Source of the DNA: Trypanosoma brucei
Lineage: Eukaryota
Length of the DNA stretch: 64,000 bases
Direction: 5' to 3'
Assembly (NCBI GenBank): GCA_000002445.1
Contig: CH464491.1
Coordinates: 2,720,001-2,784,000, forward strand
In this document: piece by piece, positions 15,523 to 54,859 of the stretch
How the letters are laid out: every line of letters starts with the position of its first letter
How positions within the stretch are numbered: position 1 is the first letter of the stretch
Notes under the pieces: model-generated
Seen by the model: the letters and a program-made list of their open reading frames with translations, nothing else
The model's database searches: none
Told to the model about the DNA's origin: nothing
Program-made: the position numbers and the translations under genes

Positions 15523-15575
15523 CGGTCTCTTTTATTTGGTTTCGTCTCCGTTATCCCTTTTTTACCTTGCGGGGC
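15523..15575 (+). promoter_or_regulatory. Polypyrimidine tract, a candidate trans-splicing signal for the WD40/UTP21-like gene
   Basis: tctcttttatttggtttcgtctccgttatcccttttttaccttgcgg lies about 110 nt upstream of the ATG at 15683. Confidence 0.45.
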
Positions 15576-15682
15576 TAGTTGTTGGGGCCACTATTTCGAT
15601 ATTCCCCTCTCAGTGGATGGAGAGCTTCTCCCCATTTCGTGTGGTCGGAAGCGTATGTGGTGAGCTGCCAGTCAGTAGCACA

Positions 15683-18544
15683 ATGTTATACGGCGCACCG
15701 CAGTTGATGGTTGCCACAGGACGCACATTTCAGTTGTTTCGGGGGAAAGAACTTACAATGCTTCGCGGTGGGCCGCACTTTGAGAAGAGGGTGAGGGCTG
15801 TAACACAGGCAGGGAAGTATCGTTTTGTTGCCGAAGGGCCTCGGATTCATGCATTTGTGCATCACAAGCCGCTCTGGAACTGCATGCACAACGACGTTAC
15901 GCAGAGCAGAGTGGATCACATTCTTGCTGTGGATGATATTCTTTTCTGTGTGGGTAACGATAAACGCGTAGTGGTACGGGAGATAAAGAGCGGGAACATG
16001 CTCACAGAGTTTCTTGTTGATGGTAGTGAGGAGACACGCGCGATGATTACCCCTGCCGGATACAACAACAAACTTCTTTTGGCGACTGCACAGGGATCAC
16101 TGCAGTTATACAATTTCAAAAGCGGTGTCTGCCTGTGGCGCGAAAAGCGAGAGCCTGGTGCGCAGATCACGGCTCTAGCGGCAAGTAACTTCAAGGACAT
16201 CATCGCATATGGCACAAGCAACGGCCGTGTAGTTGTTCTCAACATGGCTACTAACGAGGATATCATGTCATTTGACCAGGAGGAGAGAGGTGCCGTGACT
16301 GCGCTGGCGTTCCGAACCGACAAGGATGTCCTCGTCGCCGGGTCTAGCTCCGGCGAGGTGGCGATGTGGGACCTTGAAAATGGCTGCCTTGACGGTCTTC
16401 TGACGCGTGGCAAGCAAGTGAAAACTGAGACGGAGGTGCTGGAGTCCCCACACACCAATACCGTTCACTCCATAGTTGTTCTGCCAACAGAAACTGCCAC
16501 CATTGTTACAGCTGGAGCTGACAATGCATTGATGCAGTTTAGGTTTGACACTGTAGACGGTCTTGGCGTGCTGGTGCGTGAGCGTCGGGGTCATATGGGG
16601 AGCTGCACAGAGGCTAAGTTTTATAACAGCGACTTGCTGCTGACTGCCGGTACCGATCGTTCGCTCCGTGTGACGCACCTATTTTCCGATCGTGCGTCAT
16701 GGGAATTGTCTCAGGGCCAGTTGGGCCGACGGGGGCGCGAGAAGCAGATGGGACGTGAGGCGATGAAGATGCCACCTGCTGTTGCTATTGCCAGCTGCAC
16801 TGCAAGGAACTACCAGTGGGCGAGCATTGTTTCTATTCATGAATCTTCGTCAAAGATGTGCGGCTGGCGCATGGACACTCGTTCTCTAGATTGTAAGCTG
16901 AGCGGTATTAAGACGTCGATGCACATCGCACGTGCCGTCGCCATGAGCGACTGCGGGAACTTTGCTGTTATCGGGTACTCGAGCGGTGATGTATCTGTTG
17001 TCAGTATTCAGAACAAAGGCGTACGGCAGTTGCTTGACTCCTCACTGAAGCCGGACGACCGGGCACACTGTGGTTCAGTGGAGTGCGTTGAGGTGGCCTG
17101 TGGAAACAACATTGTTGTAACTGCAGGTCTTGACTCGATGATTAAGTTGTGGAGTCTCTTCACCTGTCGCCTCCGCACCGTCGTGAAGACTGATTGTCCT
17201 TTGCATAAGTCATGTATTCATCAACCGTCGTCTCTCTTTATTGCCGCGCAGCACTTCTCCATTCGTGTATACCACTGCAACCCCGACATTGGGCTTACAA
17301 CCCAAGAGTTGCGCGTGCCCGTACGAACGTTCAGCGGCCACACCAGCCCCATTACAGCCCTAGCCCTTGCGCCAGACTCGTATCGTTACGTAGTGTCGGC
17401 ATCTGGCGATGCAGCACTACTTGTTTGGGATCTTGCCTCCTCTGCCTGTGTCGGGCAGTACCGCCTAGCTTCTCCGGCCATCTCACTTGCCTTCCACCCA
17501 GATGCTCTATTTATGGTCTCTACGCATGCCGGTGAGCGTGGTGCCTTCCTTTGGTCAAATAATTTGCGTTATGGCTTTGTTCCAGAGGTAATAACGGATC
17601 CGAGGGCGCGCAGCGTGGAGGAACTGCCACAGCTGCACTTTCCTACAGCTCATGGCGCCGCGGAGGATGCAGAGGATGATACTGTTGACAATGCTGTGAA
17701 GTGTGAGAAAGGGCTCCCGGGTTCAGGTAATGAAATCAAGGAGGAGGGTGAAAGCGATGGTAATGATGATGGAATGTTGGGCGACATAGCGGGTGCTGGT
17801 GGAAACGCTGAGCAGGAGGTAGAGCTTTTTGACGCCAAGAAGGATACTGCGTTAATGCAAATTGAGAGGGAAAAAGTAAAATGGGCTGAGCTTGATGAGA
17901 TTATTTCCGGTGGCATGCGCCTAGCTGGCGTGCCCCGCTCCATGTGGTTCGACCTTACCCTGTTGGAGCAGATAAGGGAAAAGAACCAACCGCTCCTTCC
18001 ACCCAAGAAGCGCGACGTTCCCTTCTTTCTACCAACCACGCAGGAATTGCGTCCCACGTTCCTTGTTGCAGCTTCAAACTCAAAAGATAAGGAAGCTCTT
18101 GTATCGCGGGTGGTGAATGCCCCGATAGCCCAGCTCACGCCGGTGCAGCAGATGCTTGTGCGGAACGAACATGATGCTTTTTTGTCGTACATCCTTTCCC
18201 TTGGTTCACCACAGGCTGTTGACTTGGAGATCAAGCGTGCGGTCGACTATGTGGAGGGTTGCTCTTACACGGAGAAGGAACTGGAGCGTATTAAGGACTG
18301 CCTGCATGGGCTGTTGTCATTTGTGGCGGAGTGGCTGAAGCGGCGCGAGAATGTCGATTTGGTACAGGGCATATTGGCTGCCGTCATTCATTCACACGGC
18401 CCACTGATAACAAAGTGTGGTGCCGAGTTAATTAATGTTCTTGAGGAGCTGGCAGAGTTACAGAACTCGATACGATATAGCGTAGATCACCTCATTGGGT
18501 ACCCAAGCTGTCTGGCAGGTACTTTTTCGGGGTCACATTTCTAA
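15683..18544 (+). CDS. WD40-repeat protein, probably UTP21/WDR36 (SSU processome). The ORF-track start at 15488 lies in the polypyrimidine tract; the start is taken as the ATG at 15683.
   Basis: About 12 WD-like repeats (GSSSGEVAMWDLENG, DNALMQFRF, DSMIKLWSL, DAALLVWDLAS and others), then an acidic linker. The C-terminal block with PFFLPT and DLEIKRAVD...KELERIKDCLHGLLSFVAEWLK resembles the Utp21 C-terminal domain. Confidence 0.6.
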   Translation: MLYGAPQLMVATGRTFQLFRGKELTMLRGGPHFEKRVRAVTQAGKYRFVAEGPRIHAFVHHKPLWNCMHNDVTQSRVDHILAVDDILFCVGNDKRVVVREIKSGNMLTEFLVDGSEETRAMITPAGYNNKLLLATAQGSLQLYNFKSGVCLWREKREPGAQITALAASNFKDIIAYGTSNGRVVVLNMATNEDIMSFDQEERGAVTALAFRTDKDVLVAGSSSGEVAMWDLENGCLDGLLTRGKQVKTETEVLESPHTNTVHSIVVLPTETATIVTAGADNALMQFRFDTVDGLGVLVRERRGHMGSCTEAKFYNSDLLLTAGTDRSLRVTHLFSDRASWELSQGQLGRRGREKQMGREAMKMPPAVAIASCTARNYQWASIVSIHESSSKMCGWRMDTRSLDCKLSGIKTSMHIARAVAMSDCGNFAVIGYSSGDVSVVSIQNKGVRQLLDSSLKPDDRAHCGSVECVEVACGNNIVVTAGLDSMIKLWSLFTCRLRTVVKTDCPLHKSCIHQPSSLFIAAQHFSIRVYHCNPDIGLTTQELRVPVRTFSGHTSPITALALAPDSYRYVVSASGDAALLVWDLASSACVGQYRLASPAISLAFHPDALFMVSTHAGERGAFLWSNNLRYGFVPEVITDPRARSVEELPQLHFPTAHGAAEDAEDDTVDNAVKCEKGLPGSGNEIKEEGESDGNDDGMLGDIAGAGGNAEQEVELFDAKKDTALMQIEREKVKWAELDEIISGGMRLAGVPRSMWFDLTLLEQIREKNQPLLPPKKRDVPFFLPTTQELRPTFLVAASNSKDKEALVSRVVNAPIAQLTPVQQMLVRNEHDAFLSYILSLGSPQAVDLEIKRAVDYVEGCSYTEKELERIKDCLHGLLSFVAEWLKRRENVDLVQGILAAVIHSHGPLITKCGAELINVLEELAELQNSIRYSVDHLIGYPSCLAGTFSGSHF

Positions 18545-18970: not shown

Positions 18971-20860
18971 GTGAACATCAACTCCTTACTCACACGGGCA
19001 TGTGCTTACGTACGTCTGCGCAAATCACGCTTCAGTAGGTGTATGTTTAGTGAGTCTTTGTACTCGTTTCACACAGTCTCTGCTGACAAAAACCAAAGCA
19101 ACAACCAGAAGGGCTTGTTGGAGGATGAGCCATGTCAATACTCAAATGGAAACAATGAGCCTGGAAGTAAAGCAAAAGGGAACAGGGATCATGAACTTGT
19201 TGGAAGGTGGGGGAGCCCACGACACGGTGGAGGCGTTGGGGTTAGAATCAGCACGTCCGTTTCTGGGAAATTTGACAAACGATGTCCAAAACCTAGCGAA
19301 GGGTACGTGCCACCACACTATGTTGGTTTACCGAAATATTGGTTACCAAATGAGACCTTTCATCCGGAAATAAACCCCCGAAGTCAACGCATCACCAAGT
19401 GGGAAAACTATGTGGGAAATAGTGAGCGCTACCATGCGATTTGCGAGCTCGTGAAGGAGTTGTGGCTTGCGAACGCGCCTGTCAACGGGAACGAGATGGG
19501 CATCGATGGTGTGAACGGTGCCCTACGGCAACTGGGTATCGAGGTGTGGTCTCCGCTCGCAGAGAATTTTTTCTCGGAGCTATCGTTAAATGAAACAAAT
19601 GGACAGCGACTTGTGGGATACAGTGCCTTCAAACGCGTATTTGTTAGGGAACTTCAGGCCCTCTTAACTCCTTCATCAGGCACCAATAGATTGGATGGTG
19701 AGGGTGTCCCAAGGGGTGACACTTGCGGTGTGCGGTTATGTGACCCCAATACGATATGTTCAAGTATACAAACGCTTAGAAGACATCAAAGCACACAGGG
19801 AGCATCAAGCAAAAATACAGTGTCGTCTGCTGCAGCTTCCTCTTCGTTCCGGCGCACTGCCGCTGGTGAACCTTCGGTTGGGTGGCCGGGCATATCCGAT
19901 ATTTGCTCCGCACTCTCTGGCCACGATCTCTTGGGTGTAACTGCGGCCGACGTGTACCTCAGTCCTGATAGTAGGAGACGGTCATCCATCCTGGGTTCGT
20001 CATCTACAGGTACTGATGCACTGCAACGGGTGATGGGACGGGGCAACCAGGGCTTGTACCCTTTGCCCATCGGTGCAAACGGTAAAACACTGGACGGGGT
20101 GTCTGTAGTGAGCAGAATGTCTATCGCCAATTCCTGTGAAGGTGACTCCTGCACACCCGTTGCTCGTTCCAGACGATCGTCTTCGCATCGGAGTGCACTG
20201 GCGGTTGTTACGAGTCCCAACAAGTGCGAAGGGAGAAAGTTGCGAAGGGCGGATGAGGGCTCTCCAGAGGCCGCAGGTGCCCAAAGGAGGGGTAGGTCAA
20301 CCACGAAAACGAAAGGAGGTAAACAAAAAACCCGTCAGAAGTCTAGAGGCTCGTCCGCTACACCACGGCGACCTTCGCGGAAAAGCAGCTCGAAGAGGAG
20401 AAACCGTAGCGGCTCGAAGAGGAGGAACCGTAGCGGCTCAAAGAGGAGGAACCGTAGCAGCAGTAGCCGTGGTAGGTTGCCGCAAGAGTGCGAGGGACGT
20501 GACGATTCAAGCACTTCCCTTTCATCTGTGAGAATTGTGAAGAATCCTACCGGGACGCAGCGGGACGGATCAGTGGTAGAAGACGAGAGCCATTACGGCC
20601 CCTGCGATGCAGCGGGAAGGGGGTCGTATCGTTCACGCGTAATGACCCTTCACCGTTGGCGGAGAACTTCACCACCTGTGTTATGCGTGGATGTAAGGAT
20701 GCCCGACGACAAGAGGGGTACCTTTGATGTTTACAGGGGTGACACTGTGGAGGGGCTTGTGGGCGACTTCGCGAGTGCGTACAACTTGAGTGATAGGTTA
20801 AGCAAACGCCTGGAGAGGTTGCTGGCAAGGAAGCTTGAGTACTACAAATGGAAACTTTGA
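18971..20860 (+). CDS. Hypothetical protein with an arginine/serine-rich tandem 8-aa repeat. The N-terminus is uncertain.
   Basis: Intact 629-codon ORF with an internal SKRRNRSG x3 repeat encoded by 24-bp tandem units at 20387-20458. The flanking region is S/R/K-rich and the C-terminal domain is structured (VDVRMPDDKRGTFDVYRGDTVEGLVGDF...). Confidence 0.5.
   Translation: MNINSLLTRACAYVRLRKSRFSRCMFSESLYSFHTVSADKNQSNNQKGLLEDEPCQYSNGNNEPGSKAKGNRDHELVGRWGSPRHGGGVGVRISTSVSGKFDKRCPKPSEGYVPPHYVGLPKYWLPNETFHPEINPRSQRITKWENYVGNSERYHAICELVKELWLANAPVNGNEMGIDGVNGALRQLGIEVWSPLAENFFSELSLNETNGQRLVGYSAFKRVFVRELQALLTPSSGTNRLDGEGVPRGDTCGVRLCDPNTICSSIQTLRRHQSTQGASSKNTVSSAAASSSFRRTAAGEPSVGWPGISDICSALSGHDLLGVTAADVYLSPDSRRRSSILGSSSTGTDALQRVMGRGNQGLYPLPIGANGKTLDGVSVVSRMSIANSCEGDSCTPVARSRRSSSHRSALAVVTSPNKCEGRKLRRADEGSPEAAGAQRRGRSTTKTKGGKQKTRQKSRGSSATPRRPSRKSSSKRRNRSGSKRRNRSGSKRRNRSSSSRGRLPQECEGRDDSSTSLSSVRIVKNPTGTQRDGSVVEDESHYGPCDAAGRGSYRSRVMTLHRWRRTSPPVLCVDVRMPDDKRGTFDVYRGDTVEGLVGDFASAYNLSDRLSKRLERLLARKLEYYKWKL
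20387..20458 (+). repeat. Three tandem 24-bp units (ggctcgaagaggaggaaccgtagc-like) inside the CDS, coding for (S)KRRNRSG
   Basis: Direct reading: agctcgaagaggagaaaccgtagc / ggctcgaagaggaggaaccgtagc / ggctcaaagaggaggaaccgtagc. Confidence 0.85.
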
Positions 20861-21404: not shown

Positions 21405-23063
21405 GTGGAAGCGGTCCGGTATAAGTGGGGTGGAGTGAGAGATAGGATAGGCGACAACCACTTAACACTTGCAATGACTAGCAGGAAGCGGCCGCGGGAA
21501 GCAGCTACATATCATGACATTCGTTTGATGTGTCAGCACGCGAGGGAACGGGAGGCGTTGCTACGCACGGGGCCGTTCTTTGTGGAGCGCATTCTGGCGC
21601 CCCGTCTTGTGGGTATTCATTACAGAGTGGACGGTTTATTGACCGACCCCAGTCGGTTGAGCCGTGACAGCGAGGTGCGTGTGCCACTAAAGTGGCGGCA
21701 GCGGTGCCAAGGACTACTTGCACTACCTCAACACGCACAAGTAGAGGGTTTAAAACGACATTTTGGTTCGATGAACGTCGATGATTTCCGGACTGTGATC
21801 CCGTCACCAGTGTATGTCGCGACGAGGGGTGAGAGGAGTGGCATAAATGTTGCGGTAAGGGCACTAGCCCCTGTAACAGACGTGGTGTTTGACATGGAGG
21901 AGCAATTTGCCGTTGTATGCCAGCGGCGCCGCTTCTCTACCTACGCAATTAGCAGTTGGATGGAGAGTTTAGATGTACCTTCCATTCCTGGTGCTGCAGT
22001 CCCTCTAGTTTCAGTTGAGCCGCAAGGCTTCTCGAGTCTCGGGTTTGCCCTCTCAGCGTTGCAATTTTTGTCATCTTCACTTCATGTTATTGCCGGTTAC
22101 CATAGAGCCCCAGTGGTGGATATCTTTGACTTGGAGAATGTTGACGAGGAGACGAGTGAGCCCCAGCAGCGGTTCAACCTGACGGATGTGAAGGAAAACG
22201 GAAACGTTGAGGATGGTTCAAGCGCCTACGCAAACGATGTTATGCCAATGGACAGATACGTTAGTTTGGGGGCGCTGTCATCAGGGTTGTCCGTGTGGTT
22301 AGACAGTCGTAGCGGAAAGGCGGAGGCATGTACTGGAGTCTTAACGCGCCAATACACTATTGGGGCCCACAACCGCCATACGGGCCGCCGTGATCCACTC
22401 GCATGCGTAACCTCCTTGTGCCAAGGCAACCCTGCGAACATACTTCTAGGAACGGAGGCTGGAGCGTTGCAGCTGTGGGACGTGCGTTGCGCCAGAGAGT
22501 GCGTGGCCCAACATATGACATCGGCGTCAATCTGTCGCCTCCATCCATCGTACTCATATCCCCTGCGCAACGTTGTGTGGCTTAACACGTTAGCGGGCTG
22601 CGTGGAAGCTGTAAGCGTTGGACAGAGCGACATGGAGCTGTTGGCACGACGTCTGTGCCCGGACTTCCAGCGTTCATCCTCAACGTTTCATTTACCGCCA
22701 CCACGTCTCTCCTTCATGGAGTCCTCTGGGGTTGTGGCTTGTCCACACATATCTTCCGGCAAACTGTTGCTTTATGATGGGAGTTCCTTGGTAAAACAGC
22801 CGAACAACTCTCGCACACAGTTATCTTCATATAATAGAGGTGTGGATGGAAAGGACAACGAGTATGAAAACGGGCATTGTAGCAATTTTGGTGGTTTTCT
22901 TCGGGAGGCATCCTCTTCCAGTGAGGAAAGTGGAGAGCGTGAAATTCCGCTGCTGAATGCTCTGCCCTCTGAGGCTAATGCGCTCGTGACTGCATGCACC
23001 GTGTGGAGCAACCGCGATATGTTCGTGCTTGGGGATGAAACAGGCCGAGTGCAGCTCCTGTAA
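21405..23063 (+). CDS. Hypothetical protein (552 aa) with WD-like repeats toward the C-terminus. The probable start is the ATG at 21474.
   Basis: Intact ORF in the + array. Segments such as ILLGTEAGALQLWDVR and VLGDETGRVQLL resemble WD40 blades. No catalytic motif recognised. Confidence 0.5.
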   Translation: MEAVRYKWGGVRDRIGDNHLTLAMTSRKRPREAATYHDIRLMCQHAREREALLRTGPFFVERILAPRLVGIHYRVDGLLTDPSRLSRDSEVRVPLKWRQRCQGLLALPQHAQVEGLKRHFGSMNVDDFRTVIPSPVYVATRGERSGINVAVRALAPVTDVVFDMEEQFAVVCQRRRFSTYAISSWMESLDVPSIPGAAVPLVSVEPQGFSSLGFALSALQFLSSSLHVIAGYHRAPVVDIFDLENVDEETSEPQQRFNLTDVKENGNVEDGSSAYANDVMPMDRYVSLGALSSGLSVWLDSRSGKAEACTGVLTRQYTIGAHNRHTGRRDPLACVTSLCQGNPANILLGTEAGALQLWDVRCARECVAQHMTSASICRLHPSYSYPLRNVVWLNTLAGCVEAVSVGQSDMELLARRLCPDFQRSSSTFHLPPPRLSFMESSGVVACPHISSGKLLLYDGSSLVKQPNNSRTQLSSYNRGVDGKDNEYENGHCSNFGGFLREASSSSEESGEREIPLLNALPSEANALVTACTVWSNRDMFVLGDETGRVQLL

Positions 23064-23417
23064 TATACAAACTCGTAGAGAGGTAGATGGGCATTGTCTC
23101 CCGTTGTCTGTCTTACCATCATTTTTCTTCACGCATATGTCACTACTTTTTTATACACCAGTCGGTGGCGATTGGTTATGTTGTCACGCACGCTCTTTAT
23201 ACATAGGAGCGCCTTGTTACTTGTACATTCACTTTGCATGAACACACGTGTGTGTGGTAAAAAAAAAAGCTATGGGGATGCGACAAGTTTATTTGTGGTG
23301 ATGTTGACAACAGTGATAATAGTGTCAGGGTTATGTATTGTTCTTTCCGTGCCATTTACCATCTGGGACTTAGGTAGGCTTAACTAAAAATTACTCAGAG
23401 AGGAACGTTAAACGCAG

Positions 23418-24284
23418 ATGCTCCGTCGCAGTGGTTGCTTCCTCAACATGGGGCTGGGGGACGAGTACGTGAAAAAGGTGTTCAACAGCGTGGCCAGCAA
23501 GTATGATATGATGAACGATGTTCTTTCGCTTGGCATACACCGCCTGTGGAAGCGCGAATTTGTCCGTGACTACGTACGACCGTGCCCTGGTGGATCGTAC
23601 GTTGACGTCGCTGGAGGTACTGGCGATATTGCCTTTCGCATAATTGATGAAGTGCGCCAGTTGGAACGGGGACTTCCAGGCCTTACACCTCCCGACTTTC
23701 GAGGAGTTGGTGTGACGGTTGTGGACATTAATGAACAGATGGTTCACGAGGGAGAGGCCCGGGCAGCACGGGAAGGATATGATGGTTTGGAGTGGATTGT
23801 CGCCAGCGGGGAGGAGCTTCCGTTGGATGACATGCAGTTCGATGGCTACACGGTATCGTTTGGCCTGCGGAATTTCAGTGACAGGCCGAAAGCCCTTCGA
23901 GAAGCGCATCGAGTGCTGAAAGTGGGTGGTGTACTGAGCGTGCTGGAGTTTAGCAAAGTCACGTGCTCGCTGCTGCGCGTGCCTTACGACGTGTGGTCTT
24001 ACGGTTTCATTCCACAAGCCGGCCGGATTTTGGCAAATGAGGAAAGCTATAGGTACCTTGTGGATAGCATTAGAGCCTTTCCCGATCAGGAGACCCTCGC
24101 AGAGATGATTCGGGAGGCGGGATTCGGTTACGTGAGGTATGATAATCTCTCTGGCGGAATCGCATGCGTACACACCGCAGTAAAAACGGAGGCTGTTCCA
24201 ATACATAAACCTAAGTCAGAGGTAGAAAACGCTATGGCGCAACAGGAGCGAGTGGTAGAAGACAGTAAAGTGGGGGCTGCATAG
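23418..24284 (+). CDS. COQ5: 2-methoxy-6-polyprenyl-1,4-benzoquinol methylase (UbiE/COQ5 family SAM-dependent methyltransferase; ubiquinone biosynthesis)
   Basis: Family N-terminal signature FNSVASKYDMMNDVLSLGIHRLWKR. SAM-binding motif I at VDVAGGTGDIAFRI. Post-I/II/III motifs EELPLDDMQFDGYTVSFGLRNFSDRPKALREAHRVLKVGGVLSVLEFSKV are typical of UbiE/COQ5. Confidence 0.9.
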   Translation: MLRRSGCFLNMGLGDEYVKKVFNSVASKYDMMNDVLSLGIHRLWKREFVRDYVRPCPGGSYVDVAGGTGDIAFRIIDEVRQLERGLPGLTPPDFRGVGVTVVDINEQMVHEGEARAAREGYDGLEWIVASGEELPLDDMQFDGYTVSFGLRNFSDRPKALREAHRVLKVGGVLSVLEFSKVTCSLLRVPYDVWSYGFIPQAGRILANEESYRYLVDSIRAFPDQETLAEMIREAGFGYVRYDNLSGGIACVHTAVKTEAVPIHKPKSEVENAMAQQERVVEDSKVGAA

Positions 24285-25124: not shown

Positions 25125-28100
25125 ATGTTCAATGTCTCACCAGCGAGTCGTGACCGCGTGCGTTCTGAGAGTCAGCGCACCCCGCGCCCCCGCAGCTCAC
25201 TCTCCATGCCACGTGAATTGTCCTACACACCCGCCATATCTTCCATTCCTTCGAGCCTGCACACACCGTTTATTCAAAAGTGCTACGTTCAGGGGGACAA
25301 TTCCACTGAGGGTCAGCAGCAGCAGCAGCAGCAACCGCCTGATCACATGACTGTCGTATTTGAAAGTGATAACATGCAACTGACAACAACAAGTTTGCTC
25401 GGGAAAGGTGGGTTTGGTCGAGTGTACGTGGCCCAGTCAAGTGGCGGGGAGTTGTGCGCCTTGAAAGTATCGTCGAAACAAATGACGGATGGTGACTGGG
25501 AGCGGTTGCGCAAAGAGGTGGCGCTTATGAGTCACTTCTCGCAGCACCCCAACGTGGTGAAGCTAATTGCTGCCGGTCGAGATAGGAATTTTGCGTATGT
25601 GGCGATGGAGTGCTGTGCGAGTCGGTCGCTGCATGACATTATTAACAAACATGGTCTCGAAGTGCCAGAAATTTTGTGGGTCGGCTATGCACTCATTGAT
25701 ACAATCGCTTTTCTGCACGCCAAGGGTTGCATACACCGGGACCTAAAGCCACAGAACCTTTTGTTTGACTTCGATGGAAACCTGAAGATAAGTGATTTTG
25801 GACTTTCAAGCAACGTTACCGAATCTGAACCACGGAAGACGGTTGCCGGGACGGCAATGTATATGGCACCCGAAATTGCTGGCGCAGTGTATAAACGCAT
25901 GACCAACGATAACAGCTCTAGTTCACTGCGCTACGGTCAGGAGGTTGACACATGGAGCATTGGTGTGGTGTTGTACGTCATGTTGACGCGCATGAACCCG
26001 TACGCGCAGGCGCTTGAAAATGAAGGTGCACACGAGATGAACAAGACGCAGAAGACACTCACCTTATTTAGTGCGGTTGCGGGGGCCGCTTGGCACTGGC
26101 CGGCGGGTTGGAGAGGCGACAAGGAACTAAGTGATGTTGTCAATCAAATACTGCATCGCAATCCAGCTCAGCGAGCCACGCTACAAGATATACTGCAGCA
26201 CCCTGTTTGGGACCGACGGCCGCTTTCGTGTCCGCTCACGCTGCTGCAAAAACTGAATTTAGTCGAGCGACGACCGTTTACCCGAACCGGAGCGGTAGGC
26301 CGCTCATGCAGCCGTGCTCCTGAAGGTATGCAGCCCCAATATGCCACCAAAACGGCAGAAGTTGTGCTCCTAGAGGGGCTAAACCAAGTGATTCAAGTCG
26401 AAGAGAGCACTCGTACTCAACTCGTCCTTGAAAGCAATGAGGTGATAAATCTCATATTCGGAACCCTGAAGCTGCATGCCTCAGAGGCTAACGGAAGGCG
26501 GTTTATTGTGATAGATGAGAAAGGTTGCCGCAAGAACATCGAAGACATGTTGCTGACCACTCGCCCGGTGCGTTGTCGCAGCCATGAGTTAGTGTCGACA
26601 GCGGTGTGTGCAAAACAGCCCAAACGTGGAACAAGGGTCGGTTCCTCATTAAGGCCGCAAAGGGAATCCAGTGTTTTGTTGGCGGGTCCATTAGCTTTCG
26701 GCCAGACTCAAGATGCTGGAGAGATTGTCCGCGCAGCGTCTGACAGGTACGCTGTGGTGTTCAGTGGACGTGAAACCTCCACACGGTGGTCTCTCCGCAA
26801 TGTCATCTCACTCCCTCGAGAACTTAACGCTGCAATTGAGGAGGTTACGTGCATTAACAAACACCAAATGAAGAAACTTATCAAAATACCCCTGGGTTAT
26901 GTCGGGTTTGATTGCAACGTATGCGACAGTGCGATTGATGATATTAGTATCGAGAAACCAGTTTTTCGATGTCATAAGTGCGACTACGACCTCTGCATGA
27001 ATTGTGCTTACGAGGGGAAAATAAAGGACGTTAACTTTGTTTGTGTTTCATGCATGAAAAAGTTTGCGTCCTCTTCAAAGCTCGAAGCACATTCAGCTAA
27101 GTGCCGTGGCCCAAGCATGAGCCCCTCGGCACGCTGCTCTTCCCGTCGAAACACGATGCTTTGGGAGCAATTGGAAAACGAGGGCGGAAGTCTGCTGGAT
27201 ATCCGGTTGCCTACCGAAACTAAACCGCGACGTAGTGCCCGTACATCTTGCCGTACCTCCGGTGGTCGAGAGTCGTCGGGTGGTCGCATTAGTATTGGTG
27301 ACAGCTATGTACCAGGACCGGAGGACTTAGGCACAATGGTAGTAGCGCACCGTGACGCCAATTTCCCTGAAATGCCAAAATTCTCCACTCAGAGCGATAG
27401 CAAGGCAAGCTCCCCTTTCGGTGAGAAGGAGGGCGCTGATAAAAATTATAGGCAGAGTTTCTCCTTTGAACTTCCCCCTCAGGTTCGGCTCTCTAAACAT
27501 CGTAGGGATAAGGGAGCGGAACCACGGAGTTCGGAAGAATTGCGCGAGATTGTAGATGAGCTTACGCCAACACCTAAAAGGGTGCGTACAGAAGCACGGC
27601 AGAATTCTTGTGAGCCATATGCTCCCCAAGTGAATGACGCAGGCTTGGTTGTCGGCATTGCTGCGCGGTCTCGTGTTGAAAGGGAGGGAAGTCTGCGTGG
27701 GGAACAGCAATCCCGTAACGTCGTAGTAATCCGTGCAGACAACGCGGCGAAACCACAAGACCTGCGAAAGCAGTCTCAGGTTCCTCGAAGCGCTTCGTCA
27801 AGTCAACCTGGTAGTAGGATGGAGTCGCAAGCTATCGATACTCTCTCGAAGCCGGCCCCTAAGAATGTGGCAGTACGAGAGTATCGGTCCGCGTCCGGCC
27901 AGCGCGATCCACTGGTGCCGAGAACGTCACTGCCTTCAGCTCAGACTGGAGAAATTTTCGGTGCACCGCCTCTCCCACGAATCGTCACCTCCGGGAGGTC
28001 TAGCGTACCACGTTCAATGTCGTACACATTGCCATCTGCTGCTGGTGTTGCGCGACGCCAGACATCCCAGCCTTTAGTGAACTTACTTGGAGGGGTCCCT

Positions 28101-28907
28101 GTCGGGGCGTATGGGGGCGGATCTTTCAACCCCGGCGAGCGCAATGCTTCCATCAGCAACACCAACAGAACTGTTGGACCGGGGCAAGGTGGGACGGCGT
28201 ACCTGGCCCTTCCTCGGGACAAGCAAAACCGGGATCGCTTTGTTGATGACTTCCTAAGCGGGGCGTGGGTAAGGGTTTACTCTTTCATTGGTTCTGAAGT
28301 TGTTGTGATGTATTATTCTGTGCAACCCGGTAGGTACGGTGCCCTCTTCCCCACAGAGGAGGGAGCAGCTACGGCAGTTCTGGACATACACTCTAAGTTG
28401 GTGCTATACGTGCCGCGTATGGATAAGGATACCGTTACTCGGACCCAGTGCCATCCGAATGTTCTAAGTTTCTTTCAAGACGAAATACGCATTCTACCCG
28501 CTACAAGTGCAGAGAAAACCCTCGGTGGTGTGCTTCGTGGCATAATGGGTTTCGTTAGTGAACTTACGAAATGTCGTGGGGAGGGAGAAAAGTATGCAGC
28601 AGCGCAGTCTGCATACATTCACCAACGTGAGAAGGGTGCGGTCCCCGCGGGCACAAAGTTCGCGTATGTGAGAAAGGCGTTCCCAGATCCAGCAGGCTCT
28701 TTCGTGTTGTTCCGTTTGTCCAACCTGCGGTCGCAGGTAGTTTTTAACAACGCACTCCTAGACATCCGTTGGCAAAGCGACAAGAACCATAATGTTGGGC
28801 AAAAGTACTACGTGCGGCCCAACGGCGAGGCCGGACCATTTACTGCGGAGCACTCAGGTATCCTCAATCACGTAAATTTGGTGATGCGCAACGTCTACCG
28901 GAAATGA
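25125..28907 (+). CDS. Serine/threonine protein kinase (1260 aa) with a central ZZ-type plus C2HC zinc-finger module and a long low-complexity C-terminal region
   Basis: Canonical kinase motifs are present: LGKGGFGRVY (Gly loop), ALKV (VAIK lysine), HRDLKPQNLL (catalytic loop), ISDFGLS (DFG) and GTAMYMAPE (APE). Downstream sits CNVCDSAIDD...FRCHKCDYDLCMNCAYEG (ZZ finger), followed by FVCVSCMKKFASSSKLEAHSAKC (C2HC). A (CAG)n tract at 25314-25334 encodes a polyQ run. Confidence 0.85.
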   Translation: MFNVSPASRDRVRSESQRTPRPRSSLSMPRELSYTPAISSIPSSLHTPFIQKCYVQGDNSTEGQQQQQQQPPDHMTVVFESDNMQLTTTSLLGKGGFGRVYVAQSSGGELCALKVSSKQMTDGDWERLRKEVALMSHFSQHPNVVKLIAAGRDRNFAYVAMECCASRSLHDIINKHGLEVPEILWVGYALIDTIAFLHAKGCIHRDLKPQNLLFDFDGNLKISDFGLSSNVTESEPRKTVAGTAMYMAPEIAGAVYKRMTNDNSSSSLRYGQEVDTWSIGVVLYVMLTRMNPYAQALENEGAHEMNKTQKTLTLFSAVAGAAWHWPAGWRGDKELSDVVNQILHRNPAQRATLQDILQHPVWDRRPLSCPLTLLQKLNLVERRPFTRTGAVGRSCSRAPEGMQPQYATKTAEVVLLEGLNQVIQVEESTRTQLVLESNEVINLIFGTLKLHASEANGRRFIVIDEKGCRKNIEDMLLTTRPVRCRSHELVSTAVCAKQPKRGTRVGSSLRPQRESSVLLAGPLAFGQTQDAGEIVRAASDRYAVVFSGRETSTRWSLRNVISLPRELNAAIEEVTCINKHQMKKLIKIPLGYVGFDCNVCDSAIDDISIEKPVFRCHKCDYDLCMNCAYEGKIKDVNFVCVSCMKKFASSSKLEAHSAKCRGPSMSPSARCSSRRNTMLWEQLENEGGSLLDIRLPTETKPRRSARTSCRTSGGRESSGGRISIGDSYVPGPEDLGTMVVAHRDANFPEMPKFSTQSDSKASSPFGEKEGADKNYRQSFSFELPPQVRLSKHRRDKGAEPRSSEELREIVDELTPTPKRVRTEARQNSCEPYAPQVNDAGLVVGIAARSRVEREGSLRGEQQSRNVVVIRADNAAKPQDLRKQSQVPRSASSSQPGSRMESQAIDTLSKPAPKNVAVREYRSASGQRDPLVPRTSLPSAQTGEIFGAPPLPRIVTSGRSSVPRSMSYTLPSAAGVARRQTSQPLVNLLGGVPVGAYGGGSFNPGERNASISNTNRTVGPGQGGTAYLALPRDKQNRDRFVDDFLSGAWVRVYSFIGSEVVVMYYSVQPGRYGALFPTEEGAATAVLDIHSKLVLYVPRMDKDTVTRTQCHPNVLSFFQDEIRILPATSAEKTLGGVLRGIMGFVSELTKCRGEGEKYAAAQSAYIHQREKGAVPAGTKFAYVRKAFPDPAGSFVLFRLSNLRSQVVFNNALLDIRWQSDKNHNVGQKYYVRPNGEAGPFTAEHSGILNHVNLVMRNVYRK

Positions 28908-30053: not shown

Positions 30054-30716
30054 TTGGCATCGCCCGTAGAGGTAGAAAAGATGCCACGCCACCACACGTT
30101 GCCTGTGGGCTTTCGCGGGTCACGGCACTCCGACAGTTGGACGGTGGGATTCTGCAGCAACGAGCGCGACCGCTTACACCACGACGTTGGTGCCACAGAG
30201 GAAGTTGGCACTGTGTGTCAGAGGCCTGAGCAACCGCCCAATCGAAAGCCGTTGTGGCGCAACCAAGCAGGACACCGTCGGTGCCGCTCGAGTAACAGCT
30301 ACAGCCCCGGTTGTCATCCCGTTTCCTCCACTGGTGTCCAACTGTTTTCAACTTTCTTCACAACACCACGGGAGGCGTTAAGGGTTCTGGAGCAATACGT
30401 TCCCTCACAACAGCCACAACAGCGCCGCAAGCGCACAATCAGGGGGCAGCGCCCGGTTTTTGCAGGGACCACCAAGCAGTTGAAATGTGACGATCCCCGC
30501 GTTTGGAGAACTAGCGAGGATACAGAAGCGCAGCGATTGGAGGGGGAGTTGGTACAATTACTGAACACGGCGCGCTTACTCTGCTCCTCACTGCGACAAA
30601 CCACTGCTGCGGTCACTAGTGTCCGAGCGGGTGTACATGTTCTTGTGAGGCAGAGTCGGAGTCTTACCCTTTGGATTTCGCCACTATCATTCCTCGCAGC
30701 TACTCGCGAATTTTAG
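30054..30716 (+). CDS. Possible small hypothetical gene (220 aa). Weak call.
   Basis: It is the only sizeable + strand ORF in the 2.4-kb gap between the kinase and the coiled-coil gene. There is no motif and the composition is only moderately gene-like. Confidence 0.25.
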   Translation: MASPVEVEKMPRHHTLPVGFRGSRHSDSWTVGFCSNERDRLHHDVGATEEVGTVCQRPEQPPNRKPLWRNQAGHRRCRSSNSYSPGCHPVSSTGVQLFSTFFTTPREALRVLEQYVPSQQPQQRRKRTIRGQRPVFAGTTKQLKCDDPRVWRTSEDTEAQRLEGELVQLLNTARLLCSSLRQTTAAVTSVRAGVHVLVRQSRSLTLWISPLSFLAATREF

Positions 30717-31305: not shown

Positions 31306-33873
31306 ATGCGAGTTAAGCGGAAGAACGCAGCAGCCGAAGGTGAAAAGGCCGAAGCAGCGCGACAGGCGGAGTTGCGCAGGTATGAAGAAGAGCAGGAGCG
31401 CCTCTACAAACTGGAGCTTGCCGCCCGTGAGGCACTCGAAGAAGAATGGACCCGTGCAATGGAGGCGCATCGGCAGCGGGAGATGGAGCTGCAGCGCGCC
31501 ATAACAGAGAGGGAACTGCGGCGTGGCTTTGAAGAACGCGAAAAGAAACTAACTGACGAACTGCACGGCAAGGAGGTAGAGGTGCTGGAACTGCGGGCGA
31601 AACTCTGCGGACTACAGCAGGGCCTTACGACCATCCAGCAGGAGCGCGAATCGGTGATGCGTCGCCTGTCTATGGTTAGCAATGAGCTCGAACTGGCGCA
31701 GATCAAGTACGTGGAATGTGACTCACTTGTAGAGAAGACTACTAATGAGTACAGCGAAAAGCTGCGGGAGGTGGAGCGGGCACGCGACTCTCTCATGGAG
31801 GACCACCAACAACTCCGTGCAGAAAACGAACGACAAAAGCGAGCGTATGAAGATCTGGAAAATCAGTTCAACGAAGCCAAATCAACGTACTTAGCGAAGG
31901 TTGATGAGCGGCTCGAAACCGTTGAGCCCCAAAGTGCCGATGCAGAGACTGCTCTGCTTCTGAAGGTGCTCAATGAAGAGGTAGAAAAACACCGCGAAAC
32001 CGCGCGGCTCCTGCAGGCAGAGCTCGAGCGTAAGGGCCGCGATGAGGAGAAGAGCAGTGTGCTCGTCACCTTGCTCAACTCGCAGCTGGAAAACACCCGC
32101 GACGAGGTGAAAAGGCTGCATGAGGTGTCAAAGGGAAGACTTCATCAGTTGGAAAGCGTTCAGAGCCTTCTAGATTCAGAGAGAGAGAAGGCGAAGACTC
32201 TCTATCGTGACCTTGACGTCGCTCACGCTGAGGCAACGGTGGAGCGACGGCAATTCAATCTTGAGATTGGTGTACATAAGGCGCAGGTGGAGGAACTCAC
32301 AAAAGCACTTCAGCGAGCACAAGGTGAACTTGCAGATACCAAGAACGAATTCGAGGTTTATAAGAACAAGTCAATGGAACGTGAACAGGGTGACCTTCAG
32401 GTGAACATCGCACTGAAAGCGGAGGTGGAGCAGGCTAAGAAGGATTTCACGAAGGTAAATGAGGACCTACGGACCGTAACCGAAGAGGCCTACACAACAA
32501 AAGCTGTCTTACGCGCTGAAGTCGATAGTCTTAAGGTTCGCCTTCAGAGACTACAGGAGAATGCTGAGAGGAGCGAGCGTGAGTCCTTTGAAACAATAGC
32601 AGTACTTCGAGCGAGTGAGGAAAGACTTCTGGAAGAAAAGAACTTTTCTGCGAAGAACCACGAGGAAATGACACGCTCCTTACGTGATGAGATTCGCTCT
32701 GTCTGCAATGAGCGTGATGTATTTAGGGCTGAGGTGGAGAAAATAACTGCGGAGAAAGTGGAGGTTGAAAGGGACCTTTATCAGCGGCTACTTCGCATGA
32801 CGGCAAACCATGATCGGCTTCACGAAGAGGTGGAGAGGCTTACGGGAACGTACTCTTCTCGTGAGAAGGAATTCATCGAGAATGCCATATTCACCAATGC
32901 TGAGAAGGAAACATTGAGAGCGAAGGTTGAGGAACTGACCGCGACTCTCGAAAAGCGGAAGGAAGAGCATGCGAACCATGTACAGCAGATAACTACAGAC
33001 CTGATGGACCTCCGTGATAGACTTGAAAGGGAAATATCTAAGCAGCAGCTTCTACTCAAGGCAGAAAAAGAGCGTGCAGAAGGTGCGGAAGAGGAGGTGT
33101 CGTCGCTGAAGCGTCAGGTTTCGGGTTATGTGGCAGAGGTAGGGCTGTTGAACCGCAAACGGGAAGAAATTGAGGGAACAATGAAGGCTGAGATACGTGA
33201 CCTTCGTATGGAATTGGGTGCGGCGAAACGGACCATCGAACGGTTTGAATGTACACTCGGTGATTTCACATACAAGTCAATTCGAGAGGCAAACGATCGT
33301 CTGCTTCGCGAGGTGGAACATCAACGAGAAAAGATAGCCACACTTAACGACACTATATCTTCCATGAAGGTTGAATCGACCATTATGGAGACTTACAAGG
33401 AGAAGATGCTCTCCGAGCAGAATGAGAAATATTCTATTCATATTCAACACTTGGAGCGGTTGCGGCAGATGATAAACCCTCTTTTCTTCGAGTTGCGCTC
33501 AATTGTCGAGAAGCACGGGCTCGTTGGCCCCCTTCGGCGCGACCTAGACGCGTATGATGAGCACGTCCGCCGCTCCCGCATTGTTTTTTCCCAGCCAACG
33601 GCGAGCTCTCTGCATGTACAGGAGGAGAAAAACGCTACCAAGTCATCTCCTGCTGTTGCTAATTCTGTTGCAGCGGGGGCGGCATGTAAAGAGCCGATAG
33701 GTACGGATATGTTAGTCGGTCGGGGGTGCGATACGCTGCCAGCCGTAGCCCATCAGACAGCAGTCGAATATGAGAAACCCGAACGCATTGCTTTGGTTCC
33801 TCACAAACCTGCGACTACGCAGCAGGCAGTAGCGGAGCACGGCTATCACTATGTGTTGCCTCGTATCAGTTAA
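31306..33873 (+). CDS. Large coiled-coil protein (855 aa), probably cytoskeletal or flagellar
   Basis: Almost uninterrupted E/R/K/L/Q heptad-like sequence over more than 700 aa (ELQRAITERELRRGFEEREKKLTDELHGKEVEVLELRAKL...). Ala/Ser-rich C-terminal tail. Confidence 0.6.
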   Translation: MRVKRKNAAAEGEKAEAARQAELRRYEEEQERLYKLELAAREALEEEWTRAMEAHRQREMELQRAITERELRRGFEEREKKLTDELHGKEVEVLELRAKLCGLQQGLTTIQQERESVMRRLSMVSNELELAQIKYVECDSLVEKTTNEYSEKLREVERARDSLMEDHQQLRAENERQKRAYEDLENQFNEAKSTYLAKVDERLETVEPQSADAETALLLKVLNEEVEKHRETARLLQAELERKGRDEEKSSVLVTLLNSQLENTRDEVKRLHEVSKGRLHQLESVQSLLDSEREKAKTLYRDLDVAHAEATVERRQFNLEIGVHKAQVEELTKALQRAQGELADTKNEFEVYKNKSMEREQGDLQVNIALKAEVEQAKKDFTKVNEDLRTVTEEAYTTKAVLRAEVDSLKVRLQRLQENAERSERESFETIAVLRASEERLLEEKNFSAKNHEEMTRSLRDEIRSVCNERDVFRAEVEKITAEKVEVERDLYQRLLRMTANHDRLHEEVERLTGTYSSREKEFIENAIFTNAEKETLRAKVEELTATLEKRKEEHANHVQQITTDLMDLRDRLEREISKQQLLLKAEKERAEGAEEEVSSLKRQVSGYVAEVGLLNRKREEIEGTMKAEIRDLRMELGAAKRTIERFECTLGDFTYKSIREANDRLLREVEHQREKIATLNDTISSMKVESTIMETYKEKMLSEQNEKYSIHIQHLERLRQMINPLFFELRSIVEKHGLVGPLRRDLDAYDEHVRRSRIVFSQPTASSLHVQEEKNATKSSPAVANSVAAGAACKEPIGTDMLVGRGCDTLPAVAHQTAVEYEKPERIALVPHKPATTQQAVAEHGYHYVLPRIS

Positions 33874-34807: not shown

Positions 34808-37408
34808 GTGGGAAGCCGGGCTCACTTTCAAATAAGGGGTCGGTGCGGGCGTCGCTACGAGTCCATTTGCAGCAGCACTGTAGAGTACACTAATATTAGT
34901 AAGACATTACCCTCACTGAATGTTGTGATGATGGATGCGCAAACGAGTAGTCTTAGAATTGACGTGAGTGACTGTGTTCCAGTGAGCGAATACAGCACAG
35001 GAAGCCCTGACTCCGTTGGGTGGAGTCCGCACAATATTCTGCACGTGGCCACTCAGTTTGCTGTTTTCCTTCACGCGAATGAACTCACAGCCGCTGATGC
35101 TATCATTCGTCCAGTCTACTTGCCCAGGGCTGATGATGCCAGTCCCATGTGCATTAGTGGCGCCAAGTGGGCGCTGGGTCTGACGTCCGACAATATGTAT
35201 CCCTCAACATGTCGGTTATGTGTGCTGACAACACGTGACCTGTTTATTTACCGTGTTGTTCGCTATGGTAATGGTCGTGTGCGAACCAGCGCTGCTCTCT
35301 GTATAATTCCTTCTCAGCGCCCGGCGCAAACTCAAATAGGTGAAACCTCTCCAGATTTTAAGAAATCTGTGAAGAGAAGGGGACGTGACGGCTTAGAGTT
35401 GTTGCTGCGTGGTGACATCGATGAGGACTGTGGCAGTGACGATGGCGGTGGTGAGCCAGTGCGTAGGTGGGGGAACAAAACTTTCGATGTTATCGGGGAA
35501 TGCATAATAGGTTACGAATGGTTTCCACGGGATCTGCTCGTTGTTGTTACCTTTAGAAGTATTTACATCGTTGATGAACCGAACAAGGCAAATAGTGTGG
35601 ACGAAGGTAAAGAGAGCCAGCAACAGACAGAGTATTTACCACCACCCTCTTACCGTTTCACTGGAAACCCCGAAGCCAGCCTACGACCGTCATGTGCTGC
35701 GCGAGTGGTGGGCGCCAACGCCGAGAGCATGCGACTTGTTGTTGCAAGTCCTCTTTTCTTGAGGGTGTTTTCCATCTCAGTTGAAGGAGGTGTAAATCTT
35801 CTGTGCTGCGTGCAGATACCCCTGCTTGGTGGTGTCCCGGCGTCCCTATGTTGCGTTCAAGCCAGTGAGGAGAGGCCAGATATCCGTGTCCTTGTCTCCG
35901 TCCCGTTGCGTGTTATCCACGGAAATATAATTATGTCTGGGGCAGTGGGAGAACCTCACAACCGTGGGGAGGGGTTCCGTGGCGGCAGCTGTGTTGCAGC
36001 GACAGCAGAGCAAACCGCAGAATGGCAGTTGGTGAATGTGTGGGGTTGCGAAAGTGGCTTCGGCGATGACATCACGGTTTCTCGCTTCGTCACTATCTCA
36101 CTGGGTTCCTTTGCACTTCGTGGGTCGGACTTCACTACCCCCAGCAGCGTAGCCGGTGGGGGGCCCTTTGTGGTGCTGGGTGTTTGTAGGCGAAGACTCG
36201 TGGGTTTCTTTGGAAAAAGTTGTATAAATCTCATTCAGTGCTCGCGCATGGATTGCTTTGTACCGCCGGATGAGGAAGGTACAGAATTGACGGGACTAGC
36301 GTTTCATCCGTCTTGCACTTTAGCCGTCGTTGCTTTACAGACTGCTTCGCGAAGGCATCCCCCTTTTCAGCTGTTTCCCTGTCCGGTAGAGAGAAGTGGG
36401 GGATTCTTAGAACGGCTGCTTTACTTTCAGGAGGGGTTTGCGTCTGTTTTTGACGTTGAGCAAAGTCAAGCACGAGGGGTGCATGGGCCGGCGCTTGCCG
36501 GGAGGGTAAGTGCCCTCAATAATCTGCAGTGTAGACAAACATCCACTTCATACTTCATGTGGGAGAAACTTCTCCCTAGGAGTGCGCTGTCCGGCAACTT
36601 TCTGCAAGGTGATGGGCTTCGACAGTACGGCTCATGTAGGTTGCCACTAATTTCGTGTCCAGCATTACTAGATAGTTCTGACACGTCCCCTGGTCTTCTC
36701 GCGGCCTTGAGGATGACTTACCTAAACCTGCGATGCGAGTACGGCATAGAGCTATTTTTGCGGTTTCCTGAAACTAATGCGCTGTGGAGGCAAACTCTCA
36801 TTCGTCTACAGAGACTTTCAGTTGACAGTTATGTCATTACGGAACTTATTCTTGCAAACGCCATTCAGCTTCTTGCAGATAAGGTTTCGTACTCGGGTTT
36901 TCGAAGGGATGGCTTTCAAAAGTACGCACTACCCAATGACGAGTATTCGCTATCCCTCGCGTATGCAGCCGCCTTACAGTTTATAAGGTTGTATCATCAA
37001 ATGTGTGAAGAGAAGGAGGCTGACGAGATGTGGAGCCACTCCGGTGAGTTCAAGAAGCAGTTAAATAAGTTTATGGCTTGTCTCGAGAGGGAGGGAGGGG
37101 GTAATGGAATCAGCAACAAGGGACAACCTGAGCCGGATCCGCGCTTCCCGTGCTCTGTATGTGGAGAGGTGGAGAAAAACAGGCTGAGTTTATCCTTGTT
37201 CTCGAGAAACCAAAACGTACCGAAGGAAGGGGAGCAAACCACCTCCGACTGCTCTGAGGGTCATCACATAACTGCTTTCTCGGGAAGAAACTTTGCGACA
37301 CTTTGCTTTCTCTCTCAAGATGAAGTATTGAGCCAGTGCCACGCATGTTCCGTGTTTGACTACGCGGTGGGACCTTATTGTGGTGTTTGCGAAGGGCTCA
37401 TGGCGTGA
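34808..37408 (+). CDS. Large conserved hypothetical protein with a C-terminal Cys/His zinc-binding cluster. The probable start is the ATG at 34928.
   Basis: Open for 866 codons. The N-terminal two-thirds are beta-rich with WD-like stretches. The C-terminus CSVCGEV...CSEGHH...CHACSVFDYAVGPYCGVCEG carries at least 8 Cys/His spaced like a zinc ribbon or treble-clef. Confidence 0.55.
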   Translation: MGSRAHFQIRGRCGRRYESICSSTVEYTNISKTLPSLNVVMMDAQTSSLRIDVSDCVPVSEYSTGSPDSVGWSPHNILHVATQFAVFLHANELTAADAIIRPVYLPRADDASPMCISGAKWALGLTSDNMYPSTCRLCVLTTRDLFIYRVVRYGNGRVRTSAALCIIPSQRPAQTQIGETSPDFKKSVKRRGRDGLELLLRGDIDEDCGSDDGGGEPVRRWGNKTFDVIGECIIGYEWFPRDLLVVVTFRSIYIVDEPNKANSVDEGKESQQQTEYLPPPSYRFTGNPEASLRPSCAARVVGANAESMRLVVASPLFLRVFSISVEGGVNLLCCVQIPLLGGVPASLCCVQASEERPDIRVLVSVPLRVIHGNIIMSGAVGEPHNRGEGFRGGSCVAATAEQTAEWQLVNVWGCESGFGDDITVSRFVTISLGSFALRGSDFTTPSSVAGGGPFVVLGVCRRRLVGFFGKSCINLIQCSRMDCFVPPDEEGTELTGLAFHPSCTLAVVALQTASRRHPPFQLFPCPVERSGGFLERLLYFQEGFASVFDVEQSQARGVHGPALAGRVSALNNLQCRQTSTSYFMWEKLLPRSALSGNFLQGDGLRQYGSCRLPLISCPALLDSSDTSPGLLAALRMTYLNLRCEYGIELFLRFPETNALWRQTLIRLQRLSVDSYVITELILANAIQLLADKVSYSGFRRDGFQKYALPNDEYSLSLAYAAALQFIRLYHQMCEEKEADEMWSHSGEFKKQLNKFMACLEREGGGNGISNKGQPEPDPRFPCSVCGEVEKNRLSLSLFSRNQNVPKEGEQTTSDCSEGHHITAFSGRNFATLCFLSQDEVLSQCHACSVFDYAVGPYCGVCEGLMA

Positions 37409-54811: not shown

Positions 54812-54854
<43 letters not shown>

Positions 54855-54859
54855 TTTGT
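54812..54859. repeat. (TA)n microsatellite, the longest of many in the spacers
   Basis: Direct reading: tatataaatatatatatatatatatatatatatatttatatat. Similar (TA)n runs occur at 807-831, 14399-14416, 15075-15097, 24766-24785, 29489-29511, 38224-38247 and 55233-55250. Confidence 0.9.

Follow-up and report, generated by a model that had tools for sequence, protein, structure and literature searches.

KKT2 of Trypanosoma brucei at its genomic locus: a kinetochore kinase with a ZZ-like two-zinc domain

KKT2 and its paralogue KKT3 are constitutive centromere proteins that underpin the unconventional kinetochore of kinetoplastids, organisms that to our knowledge have no CENP-A. Here we analyse the KKT2 gene of Trypanosoma brucei within a stretch of 64,000 nucleotides (nt) (contig CH464491.1 of assembly GCA_000002445.1, positions 2,720,001 to 2,784,000; ‘the window’, whose numbering is used for all nucleotide positions), in which an initial annotation made from the letters alone had described the open reading frame (ORF) at 25125-28907 (+) as a Ser/Thr kinase fused to a ZZ-type zinc finger and a C2HC finger. 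The record of KKT2 runs from its discovery in 2014 (the date of the name as cited within PMC8178753) through structures in 2021 and 2022 to a preprint of August 2026 that is not peer reviewed (‘preprint’ in what follows). Marciano et al. (2021; PMC8178753) solved 6TLY and 6TLX and coined the term ‘CL’ for the centromere-localisation domain; Ishii et al. solved the divergent polo box (DPB) domain, whose nearest structural homologue is the pair of PLK1 polo boxes and which is devoid of the phosphopeptide-binding residues; and the preprint describes CL as a circularly permuted ZZ-like fold. The ZZ domains that bind histone H3 (p300, ZZZ3, HERC2) and those that recognise N-degrons (p62, KCMF1) are described as sharing with CL a two-zinc cross-brace fold, a C-x2-C...C-x2-C-D-Y-D-L-C-x2-C core, an invariant Asp by which a free alpha-amino group is held, and a loss of binding upon N-alpha acetylation (preprint). 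Unlike these domains, CL fails the Pfam threshold for ZZ, carries its last ligand pair (C576/H580) on the N-terminal rather than the C-terminal side, loses binding upon mono-methylation of the alpha-amino group as well, and is embedded in a kinase.

The ORF encodes T. brucei KKT2. It spans 1260 codons plus stop without interruption, and its translation is identical over the full length to XP_829116.1 / EAN80004.1 / UniProt Q383M7 of Trypanosoma brucei brucei TREU927 (exact-sequence look-up), the 90% cluster that contains it being named ‘kinetoplastid kinetochore protein 2’. N-terminal extension of the ORF is impossible because an in-frame stop lies at 25101, 24 nt 5' of the start, and published KKT2 numbering fits the ORF (M161, S508, C576, H580, C597, C600, C616, C619, D622, C640, C643 and W1048). 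Full-length orthologues with 42-55% identity come from Trypanosoma, Leishmania, Leptomonas, Phytomonas, Novymonas and Porcisia, the entries from Angomonas and T. rangeli are truncated, and identity falls to 35-38% in more distant sequences. Throughout this work, ligand invariance was counted in 37 orthologues, per-column conservation was computed from 34 full-length orthologues, and isolated domains of 20 orthologues were scanned with Pfam. Three conserved blocks (amino acids (aa) 91-390, 541-690 and 1021-1260) are separated by variable linkers, and the order of a kinase, a central domain composed of CL and a C2H2 finger, and divergent polo boxes is that of the KKT2 group; sequence, three-domain layout and residue numbering are those of the KKT2 (paralogue of KKT3) of the published mutagenesis and structures (6TLY, 6TLX, 8A0J), without any difference. 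A frameshift or two-gene artefact is ruled out, as one ORF yields exactly the RefSeq protein and the orthologues are collinear, and the claim that kinase and fingers lie in one gene thus holds. The motifs quoted in the initial annotation all lie close to the positions it had given, and the polyQ run and the continuous frame that it mentioned are present. The kinase-finger fusion, for which it had proposed an orthologue search, has been kept throughout the kinetoplastids: the 37 orthologues represent Trypanosoma, Leishmania, Leptomonas, Phytomonas, Angomonas and more distant lineages. The observation made from the letters is therefore confirmed, yet the gene, its structures and the ZZ-like reading had all been published previously, and nothing here is new.

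The cysteine cluster that had drawn attention to this ORF, estimated to lie about 250 aa past the kinase and measured at about 235 aa, includes CNVCDSAIDD (aa 597-606, nt 26913-26942) and FRCHKCDYDLCMNCAYEG (aa 614-631). The zinc ligands of CL follow the spacing C576-x3-H580-x16-C597-x2-C600-x15-C616-x2-C619-x4-C624-x2-C627, with D622 sitting in a DYDLC knuckle. All twelve Cys/His ligands of the central domain (eight in CL, four in the finger) and D622 are invariant in 37/37 orthologues, some of which share only 32% central-domain identity with T. brucei KKT2 and yet keep every ligand; given this invariance, the cluster is more than chance. H617, within the FRCHKCDYDLCMNCAYEG stretch, is unconserved and is therefore not a zinc ligand. 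The Bodo structure 6TLY matches aa 569-664, which places the T. brucei sequence on a central three-zinc domain of aa about 562-664. In that crystal the counterparts of C576/H580, the N-terminal pair, bind one of the zincs (PMC8178753), and the same distribution of ligands over the two zincs is probable in T. brucei, by recourse to the published structure and to the analogy with ZZ domains. The two-finger account given at first was incomplete in this respect: the upstream C576/H580 (nt 26850-26864), without which the two-zinc domain lacks a ligand pair, had escaped it.

Experiments by others attach a function to these residues. Mutation of C576, H580, C597, C600, C616, C619 or D622 (D622A/E) deprives the central domain of kinetochore localisation, and growth is not rescued by KKT2 carrying C576A or D622A (PMC8178753). 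CL binds H3(1-12) with a Kd of about 60 uM and 1:1 stoichiometry; nuclear magnetic resonance (NMR) and isothermal titration calorimetry showed this binding and its loss with D622E, and N-alpha acetylation or N-alpha mono-methylation likewise abolishes it (preprint). The suggestion of a ZZ-type reader of protein N-termini, made from the letters, agrees with this later demonstration of binding to the H3 N-terminus.

Whether CL is a ZZ domain in the strict sense was assessed with profiles (Pfam cut-offs: 21.4 bits for ZZ, PF00569; 26 bits for C1_2, PF03107; 27.5 bits for ZZ_ADA2). The reading of KKT2 as simply a kinase-ZZ fusion, with a bona fide collinear ZZ finger (PF00569) followed by a separate C2HC finger, is favoured by the stretch from C597 to C627, in which ligands one to six are spaced as in ZZ and the DYDLC knuckle is present; a CL profile moreover weakly finds the ZZ domains of HERC2 and KCMF1 (E about 0.02), and CL functions as H3-binding ZZ domains do (preprint). 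However, the profile search that the initial annotation had itself named as able to refute its ZZ call went against it: PF00569 remained below its cut-off in every context, at 13.3 bits in the full protein, 9.6-11.6 bits in isolated T. brucei segments and 8-14 bits in isolated orthologue domains, and it reached E<=1 in only 5/20 orthologues (best E 6e-4). ZZ_ADA2 likewise scored 17-19 bits against 27.5, and a single-sequence search of the Protein Data Bank (PDB) with the CL core retrieved no ZZ domain at E<=10. Nor does the ligand order follow that of ZZ: no free Cys/His pair exists downstream of C627 because the next cysteines, C640/C643, belong to the C2HC finger, and since the last pair (C576/H580) is N-terminal, with 6TLY holding a zinc on its equivalent, CL can at best be a circular permutant of ZZ. 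The authors of the structure likewise regard CL as related to ZZ by circular permutation, its ligands following another order (preprint). Canonical ZZ membership is thus ruled out by the sub-threshold Pfam scores in every context, the PDB search and the ligand order, and we regard the collinear finger as highly improbable. From the original ZZ call, the spacing and the knuckle survive; the family assignment and the position of the last pair do not.

The profile data also bear on another origin, in which CL would be a divergent C1/DC1-type domain in native order with a convergent ZZ-like acidic pocket, its function being unchanged and its ancestry different. The best native-order Pfam family is C1_2, with 25.6-27.2 bits in the isolated domains of four orthologues (individual scores of 26.7, 25.9, 27.2 and 26.8 bits, at the cut-off) and 19.7 bits in a fifth; it is matched by 19/20 orthologues (best E 2e-7), and its alignment to one distant orthologue covers profile positions 2-48 of 48, upstream C..H segment included. 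Precomputed Pfam assignments give PF03107 for four orthologues and PF26235 for all; our local Pfam scan returned no match to the latter. Set against this, C1_2 scores only 19.0 bits in full-length KKT2, the CL ligands do not conform to the C1 motif HX12CX2CXnCX2CX4HX2CX7C, and zinc is coordinated differently, the N-terminal His being shared with a C-terminal Cys in the C1 domain of Vav1 whereas both ligands are N-terminal in CL of 6TLY (PMC8178753). Identity to CL is lower for C1 matches (16-19%) than for ZZ matches (24-30%), and Marciano et al. (2021) judged the similarity to C1 weak and convergent (PMC8178753). CL was also circularly permuted in silico in five orthologues, with aa 571-587 transferred to the C-terminal side of aa 588-633. 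This gave higher ZZ scores in 5/5 (for example from 8.6 to 14.1 bits, with 8-14 bits reached) and lower C1_2 scores in 5/5; the changes were in the expected direction but small, and none crossed a threshold. We know of no lipid or phorbol-ester binding by CL. On balance we hold a DC1 ancestry to be unlikely, albeit a serious contender, and prefer to describe CL as a permuted-ZZ-like domain.

A broader variant of this thought is that CL, C1/DC1 and ZZ may form one evolutionary continuum of cross-brace two-zinc fingers, with no permuted ZZ behind CL, which would instead have come, in native order, from a DC1-like ancestor; we consider this a tentative and rather improbable proposal. The three would have in common the knuckle C-x2-C-[DE]-[FY]-D-[LIV]-[CH]-x2-C and differ only in the place of the fourth ligand pair: ZZ has both members on the C-terminal side, C1 one at either terminus and CL both on the N-terminal side. 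In that case the pocket for the H3 N-terminus would either be of independent origin or already exist in latent form in some DC1 domains; ancestry alone would be affected.

The second zinc finger, FVCVSCMKKFASSSKLEAHSAKC (aa 638-660, nt 27036-27104), has the spacing and fold of a classical C2H2 finger, with ligands C640-x2-C643-x12-H656-x3-C660. As its last ligand is a Cys, C2HC is the correct description of the ligands, in agreement with the initial annotation; in the 6TLY structure it is called a classical C2H2-type finger, dispensable for localisation and growth, and the mutants C640A and C643A are tolerated (PMC8178753). Profile matches include CTCF, Aart, ZNF423 and other C2H2 fingers (E 1e-5 to 1e-4), a predicted model has a beta-hairpin and then, at model residues 89-98, a helix, and Pfam zf-C2H2 yields a sub-threshold 11.4-11.5 bits for the single T. 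brucei sequence and E<=1 in 18/20 orthologues. The central domain binds DNA weakly and independently of sequence, without need of CL, and an SPKK-like DNA-binding motif follows the finger in many species (PMC8178753). Behind the finger, CRGPS is invariant and is followed in most orthologues by SPSPRRSSRMNTMLWEE, an SPKK-like basic stretch with a conserved acidic/aromatic patch; the SPRR of T. brucei is degenerate (SPSARCSSRR).

Towards the N-terminus, CL is directly preceded by a conserved segment outside the crystallised core, with the consensus YAV(V/Y)(F/Y)PGRxTxTRW(S/N)LRxV(I/V)SLPR; residues 563-574 of KKT2 are flexible by NMR (preprint). Further upstream, the linker to the kinase carries S508, which according to Saldivia et al. 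(2021; PMC8262961) is phosphorylated by CLK1 and essential for KKT2 function. The kinase domain is canonical, as had been read from its motifs (Pfam Pkinase E 9.5e-57), and is experimentally active and essential (PMC9727816, PMC8262961). GKGGFGRVY is found at aa 93-101 (nt 25401-25427) and HRDLKPQNLL at aa 204-213 (nt 25734-25763), and the ORF contains K114, the gatekeeper M161, HRD (aa 204-206), DFG (aa 224-226) and APE (aa 248-250). As to kinome classification, proposed earlier as a check, CDPK1 and Aurora are the nearest PDB matches of the domain, their E-values forming a flat run from 1e-27 to 1e-25; no PLK-named entry occurs among the 60 PDB matches listed, which agrees with the published view that the KKT2 kinase domain is without clear group affiliation (PMC4821238). 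Conservation in aa 1-90 is 0.31-0.56.

The C-terminal part had been described as a 600-aa S/R/P-rich disordered tail. This is apt for the variable linker (about 350 aa), where fragment 672-1030 still reaches kinetochores and purifies together with KKIP1 (PMC8178753), but not for the remaining 237 residues, which constitute a folded domain, since they match 8A0J, the DPB of T. congolense KKT2 (aa 1025-1260, E 1e-95), and are as highly conserved per column (0.72-0.84) as the kinase. The DPB of T. brucei KKT3 (8A0K) is matched with E 6e-4, and the KKT2 DPB binds KKT1 directly (PMC9727816). PLK1 and KKT2 are alike in combining an N-terminal Ser/Thr kinase with a C-terminal tandem polo-box-like domain, and UniRef auto-names read ‘PLK’; KKT2 differs by its unaffiliated kinase (PMC4821238) and by the missing phosphopeptide residues, and PLKs lack a central zinc domain. 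Pfam POLO_box gave no match at E<=10 in KKT2, and membership of the PLK family is unsupported given this result, the PDB matches listed and the unaffiliated kinase. Within the linker, a PPLPR motif at a local peak of conservation is a candidate docking motif; it lies inside the fragment that co-purifies with KKIP1 and is kept in nearly all orthologues, in most of them as GG-PPLPRRGP and in T. brucei as GAPPLPRIV.

Taken together, these data and the published record indicate, almost certainly, that KKT2 is a constitutive inner-kinetochore kinase whose modules make it both an anchor at the centromere and a platform for assembly. In this model CL, as a permuted-ZZ-like two-zinc cross-brace, docks on centromeric chromatin, where its acidic pocket, built around the invariant D622 (C-D-Y-D-L-C knuckle), takes up the alpha-amino group of H3 in its free and unmodified state, and the C2HC finger together with the basic SPKK-like segment contributes a weak, sequence-independent contact to DNA. 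The linker and the DPB recruit transient kinetochore proteins, among them KKIP1 and also KKT1, which in turn binds KKT6, and the N-terminal kinase phosphorylates kinetochore substrates such as KKT8, an activity needed for accurate chromosome segregation; phosphorylation of S508 by CLK1 licenses KKT2 function. ORF identity, domain anatomy, the conservation of the ligands and of D622, and the structural match were established in this analysis; others showed by experiment where KKT2 localises, that it binds H3 and KKT1, what D622E and N-alpha methylation do, and that kinase activity is required (PMC8178753, PMC9727816, preprint). The earlier guess of a regulated scaffold kinase fits this picture of a protein that is constitutive at centromeres, recruits KKT proteins and is controlled by CLK1 at S508. 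In vivo, specificity for centromeres would stem from H3 N-termini that are unmethylated there; the authors of the preprint propose that KKT2 is confined to centromeres by H3 being abundantly N-alpha-methylated elsewhere.

Several points weigh against this model. The affinity for H3, known only from in vitro work on peptides, is moderate (about 60 uM); H3 is not specific to centromeres, so that selectivity through unmethylated N-termini is a proposal only (preprint); and the preprint reporting H3 binding has not undergone peer review. In addition, full-length KKT2 with CL mutations still reaches kinetochores (PMC8178753), because other domains also target KKT2, and CL is therefore not the sole anchor.

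Table 1. Coordinates of the KKT2 gene and its features in the window. Conservation values are per column.
Feature	Residues (aa)	Position in window	Strand	Basis
Complete KKT2 CDS (coding sequence)	1260 aa plus stop	25125..28907	+	ORF listing, exact-sequence look-up, upstream stop 25101
polyQ run Q7	64-70	25314..25334	+	Position in ORF; lies in weakly conserved N-terminal extension
Protein kinase domain	88-361	25386..26207	+	Pfam Pkinase E 9.5e-57, motifs
S507-S508 in kinase-to-CL linker; S508 is the CLK1 (KKT10) phosphosite	507-508	26643..26648	+	Residues verified; function from PMC8262961
Conserved segment YAVVFSGRETSTRWSLRNVISLPR, directly N-terminal of CL	542-565	26748..26819	+	Alignment of 34 full-length orthologues; conservation 0.74
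CL domain, two zinc ions	562-630	26808..27014	+	Ligands C576, H580, C597, C600, C616, C619, C624, C627
Single beta-beta-alpha zinc finger, C2HC ligands C640, C643, H656, C660	638-660	27036..27104	+	Ligands invariant, profile matches
Conserved basic S/P-rich segment RGPSMSPSARCSSRRNTMLWEQ	661-682	27105..27170	+	Alignment of 34 orthologues
Variable S/R/P-rich linker	672-1023	27138..28193	+	Composition; conservation mostly 0.25-0.57
PPLPR (candidate docking motif)	948-952	27966..27980	+	Alignment; local conservation peak 0.66 at aa 931-960
DPB domain, including W1048	1024-1260	28194..28904	+	PDB matches, conservation

The large ORFs around KKT2 are all on the + strand, the pattern of a kinetoplastid polycistronic unit. 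The upstream neighbour at 23418-24284 (+) is a ubiE/COQ5-family methyltransferase (Pfam E 4e-93), overlapped almost wholly by a 271-aa ORF at 23391-24206 (-), presumably a shadow ORF, and further genes on the same strand (+) carry a WDR36/Utp21-like double beta-propeller domain (15488-18544), a MIF4G domain (38337-40430) and a COG2 domain (43965-46610). Five other scanned ORFs (four of 333-866 aa and one of 220 aa) gave no Pfam match at E<=1e-5; they are among 18971-20860, 21405-23063, 30054-30716, 31306-33873, 34808-37408 and 42563-43564. A repeat scan of the window found tandem repeats in neighbouring genes and none in KKT2: an in-frame, Q/P-rich coding array with periods of 12 and 48 nt lies at 39282-39400 inside the MIF4G ORF, and an in-frame 24-nt x 3.1 repeat at 20384-20458 inside the unannotated ORF 18971-20860. 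No Rfam family reached its gathering threshold anywhere in the window. GC content dips to 0.38 (54001-56000) and 0.43 (14001-16000) against a window mean of about 0.49, and AT skew is strongly negative at 14-16 kb; the low-GC stretches are probably long intergenic or untranslated regions.

Work on KKT2 as a target for drugs against Leishmania is under way (PMC13211308). The reading made from the raw sequence alone recovered a likeness to ZZ domains that structure-search servers had missed for years, and the ZZ-like reader of the H3 N-terminus in KKT2 gives a first mechanistic entry point to the question of how centromere identity is set in the absence of CENP-A.

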